DNA of 64,000 nucleotides, from NCBI GenBank assembly GCA_025201805.1, contig MU619273.1, positions 165,329 through 229,328 of the forward strand, read 5' to 3'. The translations under genes and the position numbers were made by a program. This stretch comes from Parasitella parasitica NRRL 2501 (lineage: Eukaryota; Fungi; Mucoromycota). The notes beneath the pieces are model-generated. The model made no database searches. It saw only the letters and a list, made by a program, of their open reading frames with translations, and was not told where the DNA came from. Each line of letters starts with the position of its first letter. Within the stretch, counting starts at the first letter, position 1. Positions 44,734 to 50,430 of this stretch are shown here, piece by piece.

Positions 44734-45168
44734 TCAACTGTATGATTTTGTTGTTTCTGTGAGTGTTGAAGTGTTATTAAAGATGTACAGGTGCGCGAAA
44801 TACAACCCAGTCCCGATCAAGATCAGAATCATACTGAACCGAACAAACCCATAAACTAGACGATAAATCCACTTGAAAATGCCCATAATCATACAATAGA
44901 AGATGTACAAGATAACTAGCGACAAGAATATGCCCGTGATATTGGATTCGATGATCATTTGTGAGATCATACCATACAGCTGTCGAACAAAAGCAGGCGA
45001 GCTTGACAAAATATACGAAACAGCTGTTCTTGCTGTCGCCATAACTTGCTCCGGGGCAGGCAGAGGAATATTCGATTTTTGAAGATTCACATAGCAAAAT
45101 GTGTAGGCCTCTGAGATGAGTTGAAATGCTTGCAATGTTACGTTGAAAGAGTTGTTGAAATTATCCAT
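44734..45168 (-). CDS. small two-TM membrane protein, Apq12-like
   Basis: Two C-terminal hydrophobic helices joined by a basic amphipathic linker (FKWIYRLVYGFVRF), recalled as the Apq12 pattern. Confidence 0.55.
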   Translation of the reverse strand: MDNFNNSFNVTLQAFQLISEAYTFCYVNLQKSNIPLPAPEQVMATARTAVSYILSSSPAFVRQLYGMISQMIIESNITGIFLSLVILYIFYCMIMGIFKWIYRLVYGFVRFSMILILIGTGLYFAHLYIFNNTSTLTETTKSYS

Positions 45169-45225: not shown

Positions 45226-45420
45226 GCCTGGCTTTTTTTTTTCTTTTCACGCTTTTGCCTGGCTTTTTTTTCTTTTCACGCTTTTGCCTGGCTTTTTTCT
45301 TTTCAGGATTGAAGCATGTTTGTAATTTCAAGAGAACAAGCAATTTGCCTATTTTATGCGGTACCGTATAATAAAGAAAATGCAGAGAAGTACACCAAGA
45401 CGATTGACGAAATGGAGGAT
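45226..45420 (+). repeat. left inverted-repeat arm (about 2.7 tandem copies of GCCTGGC(T)nCTTTTCACGCTTT, then 105 nt of coding sequence)
   Basis: 45316-45420 matches the reverse complement of 49864-49968 at 98/105 nt by manual alignment. Confidence 0.92.
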
Positions 45421-45546
45421 ATTACGATTTGTTACTCAGAAAATCCTAAACAACCATTTCTTTGTTCATTAAAATCAATGATTGCCAATCCATCAGAATA
45501 CAATGCAATTTTGAAGAATAACAGTCAAGAAAAAGAAGAGAGCTAA
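45316..45546 (+). CDS. 76-aa ORF starting in the left inverted repeat (MFVISREQ family)
   Basis: 33 of the first 35 residues are identical to the ORF in the right arm; differences are mostly synonymous. Confidence 0.7.
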   Translation: MFVISREQAICLFYAVPYNKENAEKYTKTIDEMEDITICYSENPKQPFLCSLKSMIANPSEYNAILKNNSQEKEES

Positions 45547-45592
45547 TAGTAATTTTAAATCGATGATAATAATACTTTATACAAAATAAAAA

Positions 45593-46299
45593 CTAGTTTT
45601 TAGACCTATGATACAAATTTTCCCGACTATCGAATTTGAATAAGGCTTTTGGCTCTATTAATTCTTCCTGGCAATTGATAACGTGAACTTGATTATCGTG
45701 AATAATGGTATCAATAATTATTTTTTGAATATTACTATTTTCACTAAAACCAAAAGTTAATTAATTGCTTTGTTTATAGTATGTTACATACCGCAGAAAC
45801 GCCTCTAAATCAGTAAAGTTGGTGGTGAGGCCCGCTGAATCTATTATAACCAAAGCTACTTTGTTTATTTTTTGAATATCTTGAAGTAGATCTGCAAAAA
45901 AGTCAGTATTATAGTAAATGAAAATTGTATGCTATTTAAGATATTAAATACCTTGTGCATTGCCATTGATACCTGATAGCTGATCAATAATCGCATTTTT
46001 TTTTTATATCTCTTTTTTTAAATGGTGTACCAGCATTACAGCTAACAGTGACATAAACCTTCTGCGCTAAGGACCTCTCTTTCAATCCAAGAACCATAGA
46101 TTGAAGGCATTTGGTCACTTTCTCGTTATCCGCAGTCGTTTTTGACTTTCTACAATAGCCAATAATAAAATATCCTTGTATTTTAAGATCCATTATATAT
46201 TGTTGGTATTGTATTGGTAGATTAACTATGTCTTCTATAAGTGCATCTACAACGCGATAATTGATAAGAAAAATAGAATTAATAATTTGTGCGTTAAAC
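45593..46299 (-). CDS. C-terminal part of a serine recombinase/resolvase-like protein (introns 45892-45951 and 45744-45791; 1-nt frameshift in the homopolymer at 45996-46005)
   Basis: FIIGYCRKS at 46143-46169 resembles the resolvase YxRxS motif. Correcting one base and splicing two GT-AG introns gives ...KRDIKKNAIIDQLSGINGNAQ|DLLQDIQKINKVALVIIDSAGLTTNFTDLEAFLR|ENSNIQKIIIDT...FDSRENLYHRSKN*. Confidence 0.6.
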
Positions 46300-46689
46300 N
46301 NNNNNNNNNNNNNNNNNNNNNNNNNNNNNNNNNNNNNNNNNNNNNNNNNNNNNNNNNNNNNNNNNNNNNNNNNNNNNNNNNNNNNNNNNNNNNNNNNNNN
46401 NNNNNNNNNNNNNNNNNNNNNNNNNNNNNNNNNNNNNNNNNNNNNNNNNNNNNNNNNNNNNNNNNNNNNNNNNNNNNNNNNNNNNNNNNNNNNNNNNNNN
46501 NNNNNNNNNNNNNNNNNNNNNNNNNNNNNNNNNNNNNNNNNNNNNNNNNNNNNNNNNNNNNNNNNNNNNNNNNNNNNNNNNNNNNNNNNNNNNNNNNNNN
46601 NNNNNNNNNNNNNNNNNNNNNNNNNNNNNNNNNNNNNNNNNNNNNNNNNNNNNNNNNNNNNNNNNNNNNNNNNNNNNNNNNNNNNNNNN
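46300..46689. other. assembly gap (390 N)
   Basis: Run of N. Confidence 1.
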
Positions 46690-49418
46690 TCGTTTGGAGA
46701 CATAGAGATCTTTTCAATTTCTTCGGAAGAAGGTTGAGGTTTTCTTTGTATGCTTGTCATCATTCCTAAATGGAGTATATTATCCAAATTTGGCTCTTTC
46801 CTTGGCATCTTATTAAGTTTGACATCCCATTTCATCAATTTCCTTCTATCGGAAACAAGTGTTGGTTCCGCTATGATGCTAGTTGAATTTACTTCCAATT
46901 CAGATTTTGTGCGTTTTGTTGATATTTCATTATTTTTGTGTTCATCGCATGAATTTAAATTGTAGGGTGGCAACTTGTTTTTAAGCGTGGGATATCCCGA
47001 TTTTGAGTTATCTGGCTCCAAGTTAGGGGTTATTTTATTTGTTATGTCTGCCGAAAGAGAATAATCGTTTTTCTTTCTCTTTGCAAAATTTAATTCGGTC
47101 GTCTTCCCCCCCTCAAAAGCATTATTTAACAAATTGCGCTCATGTGGAAACGATGGAACGGAAGAGAGAATCGAGGATTCGGATGAAATGAGATTAGACA
47201 CATGAAGAGGAAAGGTATGAAGAACTGAGGCTGAAGTATTACTGTGAAAATAATTGAATGAGGTAGTTGGACTACGAGTTGGTCTTGAAGAGGAAGAATT
47301 AGAAGTCGTGTCACGAAGAAGACGTCGATTAGAAGTCTCGGCATTATTAGCAAAAGCCTTTGTAAATATTCGCAGAAACGAGTTCAAAGTGGAATTATCG
47401 AAAATAGGACAACAAGAAGCAAAAAGAGAACGCGACGAATAGTTATCAAGAATAGTGTTATTAATAGAATTATTATCAATAAAATTACTGTTCGAATCAA
47501 TATCTACGAAGATGTTATTCCAGCTATCAAATTCAGGATCTTCTGGAGGAGGACCACGGGCAACACTAACGAGAAAATCGAATGTTACATCTATGACAGA
47601 GTCATCATCATCGTCTTCGTAAACGGAAGCAGGAGGAATGATTGGGTTAATGACTGTTGGAGCGTTGAAATTTACAACAGTTTCGGTCGGATGTTCCAAG
47701 CCATAGAAACTCAAGGCATCTTCATTGTTCATTGCATTGAGATCTGCAGCCGATTCCTCAACTATTGGTTGTAGCCATCCACCTGTTGGCTCGTTGTTGT
47801 AGGTAGAGTGATTCCAAGCATAGAAAATGTTATTGAACAATTGCGTCTCGTCTGCTTGGGGAAAAACCATTGAATTGTAGTCTTCTAACCACCATTGATC
47901 CAGATCAGAGGAAAGAAGGAACTCCTGGTATGGTGGCAAGGGCGAGTTGCTGGTAGGCGCGACTTCGGTGATGATAGGTGTAGTAGGTTCTAGATGCGTT
48001 TCCTCAATTGAAACAGTGGTGATGTCAGAGTAGGATGAAATTTGGGAGAAATTGAGAGAGTTTCGTACTAGGCTGTTTGATTCAAACCCGCTGGGGTAGT
48101 AACGTTTCAGCAAGGCTGCGACGTCTTGCGGACATCTGCGAGACAACGTACGGTAGATCGATTCAGTAACATGGAAGTACTTTTGATGACTTGTTACGAA
48201 AGTGCAGTGTCTATTAAGGAATGGGATCTGTCTACTGTCACCGAAAAGAATGATTTTTCCGTTCGGGTTCAATCGAGCGATCGCGGCATAGAGAGCACCA
48301 GCGTGAACCATGAGAGCCTCGTCAACAAGGACGTTGTTACAACCATCTGTGAACACAGCGCGACGGTGCATAAGATATGAATCGATAGTGCGGATGTTTG
48401 ATGCTAATTGTTGCTGCAAGGCTGCGTTGTCATCATCTTTAGATGAGAGTAACTGGAAAATCTCTCTGCGCGTTTCCTCTGCCGTGCTGGACGTCTCGCA
48501 AAGTACGATATCTCCGGGCTTGTAAGTGTGCACGATCTCGTACGTTTTCCCGGCGCCGGGTACACCTTCGATAAGAGTTGCGGAGAAAGGGCGGTAGAAA
48601 AACTTCGGATGTAAGTGTGACACGGCTGACGAAATACTGCGAGCGTTGAATACTTCGAAAGAACCGCAGACAAAGACGATGTCAGAACGGGGCTGGTTCT
48701 TTGGTTCGACGAACACCAGACCTTCTGGTCCCTTCTTGTCGCGCAAGGAGACACCGCGAGGCACCCCGAGCTTGACAAATCGCCCCTGCATGTCCATAGC
48801 TATAGAGTAAGTCGCAGAAGTTTTGATGTAGGATGAAGAGACGTAAGCTAACATAGAGTCGGCCACTGTTCCATCCGGGAGAAGTCCGTCGGAATTAGGT
48901 CTAGAAACTCGAAGGAAGTTCGGGTTATCTTTGCCGTTTTGGTACAGGACTAGTTTGTCCATAGGCTTCGGTTTGCCGTTGACAGTGCAATAATCAAAAA
49001 CTTGTTTAGCTTGGTTCTCGACACATTGCGCTTCGTAGGCCTTGTACTTAGCGTACTCTACCGTAGCGGCAATCGCAGCGGCAGGCAGTTTAGCACGGAA
49101 GGCAGGGTTGAGCTGTTGGCAACGCACTTCCAACTCGCATGGTAAATCGCTCGGGATGGTATCAGCGAGTTTGAAACGGTGAACCGGTGTTCCGTCGGGT
49201 TCCGTTGGAGTACGGTTGTCAAAGGTACGCCAGTCAGCAGACTGGTTGATGAGTTGGTCTTCGGCGACCACGTCCGACGACTTCCGAACGTTGGTGGATT
49301 CGGTAGCGTCGGGAAGGGACTCGTCGTCATCATCAGTAGAGGAAGTACTCTGTCCCTGATTATCTAATAAGGCCGTAGATCCGTAAAATTGATCTTGATG
49401 TTGGGCTGGAATCCTCAT
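46690..49418 (-). CDS. intronless ORF of about 909 codons (ATG 49418, runs into the gap) containing a viral SF1 RNA helicase fragment plus low-complexity extensions
   Basis: No stop codon between 49418 and the gap, per the ORF track. Confidence 0.75.
48030..49350 (-). other. endogenous viral element: tobamo/virga-like (+)ssRNA virus replicase fragment (inter-domain linker plus helicase motifs I-IV)
   Basis: TLIEGVPGAGKTYEI (48543-48566 core), IRTIDSYLM, VLVDEALMVHAG, LFGDSRQIPFLNR, TLSRRCPQDV are collinear with tobamovirus helicase motifs; visibly higher GC/CpG than the flanks; no introns. Confidence 0.92.
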
Positions 49419-49968
49419 GTTTTCTTTTAACACTTGCAGTTGTGAAATTCAACTTTTGTGTTCTACACCAATTTGTGAATTTTGAAAAGTTATCTTCTTT
49501 AAACAACGAAGTGTATTCCCAGACCTGTGATAATATTGTATTCATTGATAAAGCTTTACATTCATACAAAACAGACTCTGGATCTTCTGAAAGATAAGCT
49601 ATATCCAGGAATTGTTTTAATTGTGGAGTAGTTTCTATAAAATGAAAAAAGTCAACCAGTGGAAGATAAAAGCATTAACTGTAACAAGTACCAATTTCTA
49701 TTTTGCGATTTCCGACTTCTTGATTGCTTTGGCCAATTTCTTCATCAGTTTTTTCTTGTCGGCTTCCAGATGGGTATAAATGAATATCAAATGAGTTGGC
49801 ATAAATTATTCTTGTACAAAGAAGTCTTGGTTTTTTCTGGTTTTTTGTATAGCAGACGTCGACATCCTCCATTTCATCAATCTTCTTTGTGTACTTTTCT
49901 GCATTTTCTTTATTATATGGTATAGCATAAAATAGGCAAATTGCTTGTTCTCTTGAAATTACAAACAT
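49360..49968 (-). CDS. 2-exon MFVISREQ-family ORF starting in the right inverted repeat (intron about 49635-49691); possibly the 5' part of the resolvase-like gene
   Basis: MFVISREQ...RKIEI|ETTPQLKQFLDIAYLSEDPESVLYECK...FTNWCRTQKLNFTTASVKRKHED...YGLIR* splices in frame through GTACTT...TTATAG. Confidence 0.7.
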
Positions 49969-50004
49969 GTTTAAAGCGTGAAAAGAAAAAAAAAGCCAGG
50001 CAAA
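49864..50004 (-). repeat. right inverted-repeat arm (one copy of the GCCTGGC...CACGCTTT motif plus 105 nt of coding sequence)
   Basis: Reverse complement of the left arm. Confidence 0.92.
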
Positions 50005-50430
50005 TTTACGCGCGTCAAGAAAAAAGCTTGTTTGTGTCAATGAATCAAAAAGGTCTGTGTGACAACCTGCACTCGAGAAAACGTATGAATTCTTGTGATT
50101 TCACTTAATTTCATGTACTCGATGACTAGAGATTAAAGAATATCTATTACTGGAAGCCAAAAAAAAAAAAAAAGGGTTGCTTCTAACGAATCTAATAATT
50201 GCTAATATCTTATCAATGGTAACTTTCGCTGCAGACAAGTAAGCAAAGTAAATCTATTCATGTTGATTTGGTACCATTTATTGACATCGAAATAATATTT
50301 TATATAATGATTTATCATCATTCAAACCTAATCAAACTTCAAATGGTCCCCTGGACCCTTTTATATACATACGTCGCTACTTTCTAAATTATAGACACTG
50401 GGCTAGGCTTGACCATAATTAGCGGTTTTT

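Follow-up and report, generated by a model that had tools for sequence, protein, structure and literature searches.

Gene organization and splicing

The window (the whole 64,000-nt stretch of Parasitella parasitica NRRL 2501 that was analysed) carries on its minus strand a gene of five exons, running from 49968 to 45593, whose 3´ half corresponds to the region picked out by the first-pass annotation as a putative serine recombinase. The encoded protein comprises about 368 amino acids, with the resolvase-like domain in its C-terminal half. Full-length homologues can be mapped end to end on the window, with residues 1–177 at 49968–49381 and the remainder at 46246–45596. The intact twin of this gene is P0159, the 368-aa product of Rhizopus microsporus RMATCC62417_07254, which is identical at 323 of 349 compared residues (93%).

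Exon 1 (49692–49968, minus strand), with its ATG at 49968, encodes an N-terminal domain of about 65 amino acids, predicted in the structural model to follow a helix–helix–hairpin–helix order; 85 of 92 residues are identical to residues 1–92 of P0159. Intron 1 (49635–49691, minus strand; 57 nt, GT–AG) is skipped in one contig of X6, a run that is RNA by guess, and is absent from P0159. The 5´ part of exon 2 (49382–49634, minus strand) encodes an RFX-type winged-helix domain, with 70 of 83 residues identical to P0159 94–176. This exon is cut at 49382 by an inserted element, its last 10 or so codons lying outside the window, and contigs end loosely at this same position in runs X2, X6 and X16.

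The 3´ part of intron 2 occupies 46247–46299 (minus strand). The first-pass annotation had treated 46299–46247 as coding; this segment is intron instead, given that the RNA contigs of X15 and X16 exit the window at 46248, and their loose letters beyond that point code for the end of the upstream exon. Exon 3 (45952–46246, minus strand) specifies a linker helix, beta1 with the Y-C-R-K-S motif (Tyr at 46157–46155, Arg at 46151–46149 and Ser at 46145–46143), helix A, beta2 and a conserved RD. It is followed by intron 3 (45892–45951, minus strand; 60 nt, GT–AG), skipped in X15, X16 and also X6, with the same proviso on the latter. Exon 4 (45792–45891, minus strand) encodes beta3, a D-x-A-G-L-T-T-N loop in the place of DRLxR and a conserved Asp of helix D, and is identical to P0159 at 32 of 32 residues. 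Intron 4 (45744–45791, minus strand; 48 nt, GT–AG) is skipped in X15 and X16, and exon 5 (45593–45743, minus strand; 47 of 49 residues identical to P0159) contains beta4, beta5, a short helix E and a terminal F-x-x-R-x5-R-S motif before the stop codon at 45595–45593.

The evidence for splicing comes from RNA contigs of X15 and X16, which belong to two studies, together with X6. Introns 3 and 4 are those proposed by the first-pass annotation, and both are real, since the X15 and X16 contigs skip them to the base. The other landmarks on which that reconstruction relied, namely the end of the open reading frame at 45984, the 10-nt homopolymer, the GT–AG borders and the exon end at 45593, are all present in the sequence.

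A copy broken twice

The minus-strand frame containing IIGYCRKS stops at 45984–45986, beside a 10-nt homopolymer (45996–46005), by a frameshift in exon 3. It had been recommended that the homopolymer length be checked against raw reads. DNA run X1 matches 45330–46299 with two differing letters and zero gaps, and P0002, a Parasitella protein, finishes in an identical out-of-frame tail. The shift is therefore a genuine feature of this copy lineage and not a sequencing slip. Relatives such as P0159 and P0004 are in frame across the equivalent place. Both A/T runs within 45996–46019 are slippage hot spots, where the proteins P0001, P0002 and P0003 and contigs of X6 differ in frame, and one broken frame version is common to different genera.

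The second lesion is an inserted element (46690–49381, minus strand) that interrupts the gene and whose left end is hidden in an N gap (46300–46689); exons 2 and 3 are thus separated by 2.7 kb of this element plus 390 N. It contains a fragment of an RNA-virus-type SF1 helicase (PF01443, E 4e-21) in an open frame of more than 900 codons. The helicase part (47995–49373) is covered by one contig in the DNA runs X1 and X2, and it is therefore an endogenous viral piece. Run X6 also shows a 52-nt GT–AG skip inside the element, on the plus strand (47213–47264). The end of the element (49344–49382) runs on into several different sequences in X1, X2 and X6, where several repeat families have it in common. 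Other copies have CTGATAG after the 49382 end, followed by variable flanks, and these seven letters are missing here.

Without this insert, the first element is present in run X1 as a single 1584-nt contig that extends from one arm to the other and contains no further gene. The frameshift and the insertion together make the copy in the window one that is broken twice, although the scaffold may instead join two copies across the N gap.

The repeat-bounded unit

The gene lies within a unit of about 1.6–1.7 kb with end repeats of about 29 bp. On the left, tandem repeats at 45226–45310 (plus strand) consist of a unit of about 29 bp starting with the near-palindrome GCCTGGC, with two exact pattern matches and a third, degenerate unit. 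On the right, a 26-nt inverted copy of the same unit matches the pattern at 49976–50001 (minus strand), and in other copies a further repeat unit lies beyond it (X1 has a loose end at 50002). These repeats are located outside both start codons, with three pattern matches compared with 0 in 100 shuffles. A target duplication is not apparent at the repeat edges, which are the candidate ends of the element. In four runs containing the element, the right flank (50054–50150) has no cover; this was left unused, as contigs show presence and not absence.

Internal to these repeats, an inverted repeat of about 200 nt (79%) flanks the gene. It is formed by exon 1 and a convergent 76-aa ORF (45316–45546, plus strand), a paralogue of the N-terminal domain alone. 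Over codons 2–35 the two sequences differ by five synonymous and two non-synonymous changes (dS 0.33, dN 0.024, Fisher p 0.002), and over codons 2–65 the values are dS 0.62 and dN 0.27. The two arms are thus a coding pair under purifying selection, and the idea of a simple terminal repeat was discarded. Relatives of the ORF at at least 90% were found in Mucor lusitanicus and two further contigs, and its product may be a regulator or the remnant of a sister gene.

In run X6, GT–AG skips are also seen on the plus strand, at 45707–45778 (72 nt) and 45902–45979 (78 nt). They suggest a spliced antisense transcript over the recombinase exons, which is perhaps a continuation of the transcript of the 76-aa ORF. 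A TnpB or Fanzor partner is absent from the 1584-nt X1 unit, which the main gene and the 76-aa ORF account for between them.

A 144-aa host gene (44734–45168, minus strand), whose match to Apq12 is weak and under the cut-off (PF12716, E 0.0055), has its ATG about 60 bp from the left end of the element, which lies upstream of it. A cytochrome P450 gene (43218–44618, plus strand) is found about 0.7 kb from the same end; from its motifs, we take it to resemble the sterol 14-alpha-demethylase CYP51.

The presence of inverted end repeats would also suit a rival explanation, in which the product is a derivative that binds DNA but is catalytically dead or does not recombine, and rides as cargo in a non-autonomous element whose movement depends on another transposase (e.g., of the DDE type). 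Mucorales are rich in DDE transposons (PMC5751038), and a frameshifted version common to the window, X1 and Parasitella implies that broken copies spread too. However, most of the longer inverted repeat consists of two paralogous coding sequences and not of a terminal repeat, and the edges lack an evident target duplication. Together with the residue conservation described below, this makes the cargo explanation an unlikely one.

Predicted fold and domain organization

The first-pass annotation had proposed that the protein follows the layout of a resolvase catalytic domain, a proposal borne out by structure comparison. An AlphaFold2 model of the homologue P0042, built with 109 sequences (pLDDT 93.4, pTM 0.79), was searched by VIA against 48,161 solved chains. 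Ranks 1–13 are serine recombinases only, with Z from 9.9 to 7.1: the top match is 3bvp (Z 9.9, rmsd 3.2, 111 aligned), gamma-delta resolvase 2rsl reaches Z 9.7 (rmsd 2.6, 102 aligned), and the IS607-type pair 3lhk and 6dgb reach Z 9.0 and 7.1. The best unrelated row for the catalytic domain has Z 5.5. Foldseek likewise places serine recombinases at the highest probabilities (0.95–0.99), with best E values of 1e-3 to 2e-2 and none at E <= 0.001; these rows include Sin and serine integrases, and the top viral models of BFVD are IS607-like COG2452 proteins and giant-virus recombinases. In an independent ESM Atlas model, six of seven rows are PF00239 clusters, with TM 0.19–0.48, each below the naming bar of the Atlas. 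A serine-recombinase fold is accordingly predicted for the product.

In the model, a winged helix (86–177) is N-terminal to the catalytic domain (206–359). Residues 86–177 match the RFX winged helix 1dp7 with Z 6.3 over 73 of 76 residues (5.8 in a second search), and also the P4 origin-binding domain; as Z values under 8 are middling, the RFX subtype is tentative. Foldseek on the N-terminal half returns weak rows, mostly of winged-helix proteins, and residues 1–65, searched within larger models, have no fold match. The predicted order, an N-terminal domain and an RFX-type winged helix followed by a resolvase-fold domain, is that of IS607 TnpA.

At the sequence level, no match to known recombinases is significant. 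With hhalign, the probabilities against known recombinases are 36% and 12%. One hhalign register, pairing DRLGRDTADM with the G[ND]TQD motif, was discarded because the VIA alignment of model residues 206–340 with Tn3 1–101 requires the register used in the first-pass annotation. A search of PDB sequences gives nothing relevant with query A1; gamma-delta resolvase appears at E 0.46–1.8 with A3 (three of four rows) and is absent with the deeper A4.

Active site

Residue equivalences were derived from strand order and VIA ranges and should be read as likely ones. The YxRKS motif at the end of beta1 is strongly conserved among sequences only about 30–40% identical: Tyr in 103 of 105, Arg in 101 of 104, Lys in 97 of 104 and Ser in 93 of 104. 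Likely counterparts of other resolvase residues are also maintained, including those of R45 (101/108), D75 (89/97), R119 (35/42) and R125 (43/47). Near-invariant residues specific to the family are the Lys of YxRKS, the Arg of LxxRS (100/107) and two Asp (102/107 and 88/102). In a global alignment, albeit one of low probability, the terminal FxCR..RS motif falls opposite FSCRLYGLRK of IS607 TnpA.

The rest of the site differs. The first-pass annotation had pointed out that the DRLxR arginines are replaced, and this is a family-wide feature: the loop reads A-G-L-[TS]-T, with Gly at the R68 position in 83 of 88 sequences, Thr at the R71 position in 77 of 88, and an Arg anywhere in the loop in 2 of 88. 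The alternative hhalign register does not provide a conserved Arg at this site either. At the inferred position of D36, at the end of beta2, the acidic residue is not kept, with Ser in 80 of 89 and Thr in 8 of 89. Tn3 resolvase needs Y6, R8, S10, D36, R68 and R71, and the loss of D36, R68 or R71 cuts its activity about 1000-fold (PMC2794168).

The absence of three of these six crucial residues weighs against a serine transposase, as do the short helix E (338–351 in the model), the replacement of the catalytic Ser in 11 of 104 sequences, and the lack of sequence-level significance to known recombinases. Moreover, the inverted repeats at the candidate ends are unlike IS607. The family-wide loss of the D36, R68 and R71 equivalents would also suit dead cargo. 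However, the Ser, Arg, Tyr and other Arg residues are kept over 19 genera at about 35% identity, beyond what mere DNA binding would call for.

An active Ser without full strand exchange should also be considered, as in a nickase, a topoisomerase-like enzyme or a homing-type nuclease whose gene spreads with the help of host repair. In favour of this, the family retains the nucleophile motif but has lost the phosphate-binding Arg pair, and helix E, the rotation interface, is short; the joint at 49382 also shows imprecise joining in the region. It is decidedly improbable, given that the R119/R125-like Arg pair and an IS607-like C-terminal motif are kept and that IS607 TnpA likewise has an unusual folded helix E (PMC6188088 and PMC4058570).

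In the preferred reading, to which we give an even chance, the region represents the catalytic half of a Mucorales gene, present here as a broken copy, whose product would be a eukaryote-adapted serine transposase with a rewired active site that serves an element of about 1.7 kb. By analogy with IS607, the winged helix would bind the 29-bp end repeats, and the Ser of YxRKS would cut DNA through a phosphoserine link. The charge of R68 and R71 could be supplied by basic residues specific to the family (Lys in YxRKS, Arg in LxxRS). The element would leave as a circle and reinsert without target duplication, as proposed for IS607 (PMC4058570 and PMC6188088).

Distribution of the family

A two-sequence profile run against 1.84 billion proteins retrieved 427 clusters at 50% identity (E <= 0.001). 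Details were obtained for the best 150 of these 427, and names were checked for 28 of them; 26 of the 28 carry an organism name, in all cases from Mucoromycotina. Among the members looked up, the named ones span 19 genera, Umbelopsis included, all from this subphylum. The Atlas clusters closest by features are 100% eukaryotic where recorded. Full-length members measure about 350–385 aa, and intact ones occur in many genera. In Apophysomyces, P0060 and P0186 have neighbouring locus tags on a 3400-nt contig and identical proteins (277/277), which may represent a doubled element.

Profile databases do not recognize the family. Pfam gives no recombinase family at E <= 1 on the exons or on 26 homologues (PF00239 matches 0 of 26); in NCBIfam, none of five family proteins matches NF033518 at E <= 1, and no other recombinase family appears; and the recombinase families of PHROGs have no match at E <= 1. 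Among plasmids, two irrelevant rows were retrieved (E 2), and phages, JGI metagenomes and IMG/VR yielded no relatives, all of these being collections with few fungal sequences. No description of the family was found in the searchable full-text literature, and Repbase/Dfam may contain an unclassified repeat entry for it. The words 'recombinase' and 'resolvase' do not appear in the available part of PMC5751038, nor do 'Mucor' and 'Rhizopus' in the main text of PMC3673617 and PMC10711439. The family is real, spliced, widespread and apparently undescribed.

Evidence for mobility

P0159, from Rhizopodaceae, has near-identical copies (86–92%) in Mucoraceae, Pilobolaceae and Mycotyphaceae, with 135 of 148 residues identical in Parasitella, 125 of 136 in Pilobolus and 72 of 84 in Mycotypha; the contigs concerned measure 0.5–2.8 Mb. 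A second subfamily is 90–97% identical across four genera (Parasitella, Pilaira, Mucor mucedo and Rhizopus stolonifer). Five paralogues of Hesseltinella are only 32–45% identical and are scattered on the tree, which does not follow host groups (25 rows, with 10 of 22 inner branches unresolved). Many family copies are broken.

Near-identical copies across four families, combined with divergent paralogues in one genome, are transposon-like. Judged by sequence comparison, the pattern is the one shown by transposons that undergo horizontal transfer. The neighbouring host gene (45168–44734) has no relative within 90%; as one small gene it is a single, weak control, which limits the support for horizontal transfer. 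The first-pass annotation had left open whether the protein was a transposase or an inactive derivative, and these mobility data favour an active role.

The four spliceosomal introns, the transcripts in RNA runs and the intact full-length members in many genera are also compatible with host genes that have been domesticated for DNA binding in the cell and are immobile today. This is very hard to reconcile with 86–97% identity across families beside 32–45% between paralogues in one genome, and equally with a tree at odds with the host groups, the frequent broken copies and the repeat-bounded units of about 1.6 kb; domestication is the most improbable of the explanations considered.

Comparison with known serine recombinases and Cryptons

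The closest system in layout is IS607 (TnpA; 3lhk, 6dgb; NF033518). Both share the order of an N-terminal DNA-binding and a C-terminal catalytic domain, end just after helix E with a terminal FxxR..R motif, and have short repeats near the element ends. However, TnpA has about 200 aa compared with about 360 aa in the family, which has an RFX-type winged helix plus an extra N-terminal domain and no profile match to the MerR-type domain of TnpA. Domain 1 has the helix–helix–hairpin–helix order that PMC4058570 describes, but hhalign finds nothing between it and five TnpA proteins. The family has also lost DRLxR and D36, bears introns and has no TnpB in its unit, and its inverted end repeats are lacking in IS607 (PMC6188088). 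An IS607 element would also be expected to use a dinucleotide crossover and to leave no target duplication. Since NF033518, DRLxR and TnpB are all missing, the family is not filed as a member of IS607 despite the layout.

Small serine resolvases and invertases (gamma-delta, Tn3, Sin; PF00239) share the catalytic fold (Z 9.1–9.7) and equivalents of Y6, R8 and S10, as well as likely ones of R45/D75 and R119/R125. In comparison with them, the family has an inverted domain order, a short helix E, no D36, R68 or R71, and PF00239 matches in 0 of 26 homologues.

The first-pass annotation considered serine recombinases to be essentially prokaryotic or viral, a statement that is too strong, as IS607-type genes already occur in a few eukaryotes, as scattered imports from bacteria. 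They have been described in Acanthamoeba, oomycetes, giant viruses and Lachancea kluyveri (PMC3673617, PMC2715888 and PMC3627910). These are also serine recombinase genes in eukaryotic genomes, some of them duplicated and under purifying selection, but with a patchy distribution and recognizable by BLAST; that of L. kluyveri is 27–31% identical to bacterial TnpA, with motifs A–C mostly kept. The Mucorales family, in contrast, is unrecognizable by sequence, bears introns and is diversified over a whole subphylum.

Cryptons are the tyrosine-recombinase transposons of fungi. Among recombinase types that move DNA, we know of no established, diversified family of the serine type in eukaryotic nuclei until now. 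Cryptons, which are named in PMC3627910, are likewise moved in eukaryotes by a site-specific recombinase of prokaryotic type with an intron-bearing gene, the role proposed here; however, the fold is unrelated and the nucleophile is Tyr, compared with Ser in the Mucorales family.

Biological meaning

It is possible, at a probability that falls a little short of even, that the family constitutes a new superfamily of eukaryotic DNA transposons, with a native intron-bearing serine transposase that lacks DRLxR and D36, carries an RFX-type domain, is active and crosses Mucorales families. On that reading the family would be to serine recombinases what Cryptons are to tyrosine recombinases, and would offer a compact enzyme that is already adapted to the eukaryotic nucleus.

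If inactive, the family would represent an ancient exaptation of the resolvase fold, one that spreads between fungal families. If active, these proteins would define a new transposon superfamily that annotation has missed in hundreds of 'hypothetical proteins', and would imply that serine-recombinase chemistry is possible without arginines held to be essential. Furthermore, a 360-aa recombinase adapted to eukaryotes may be of use in genome engineering.
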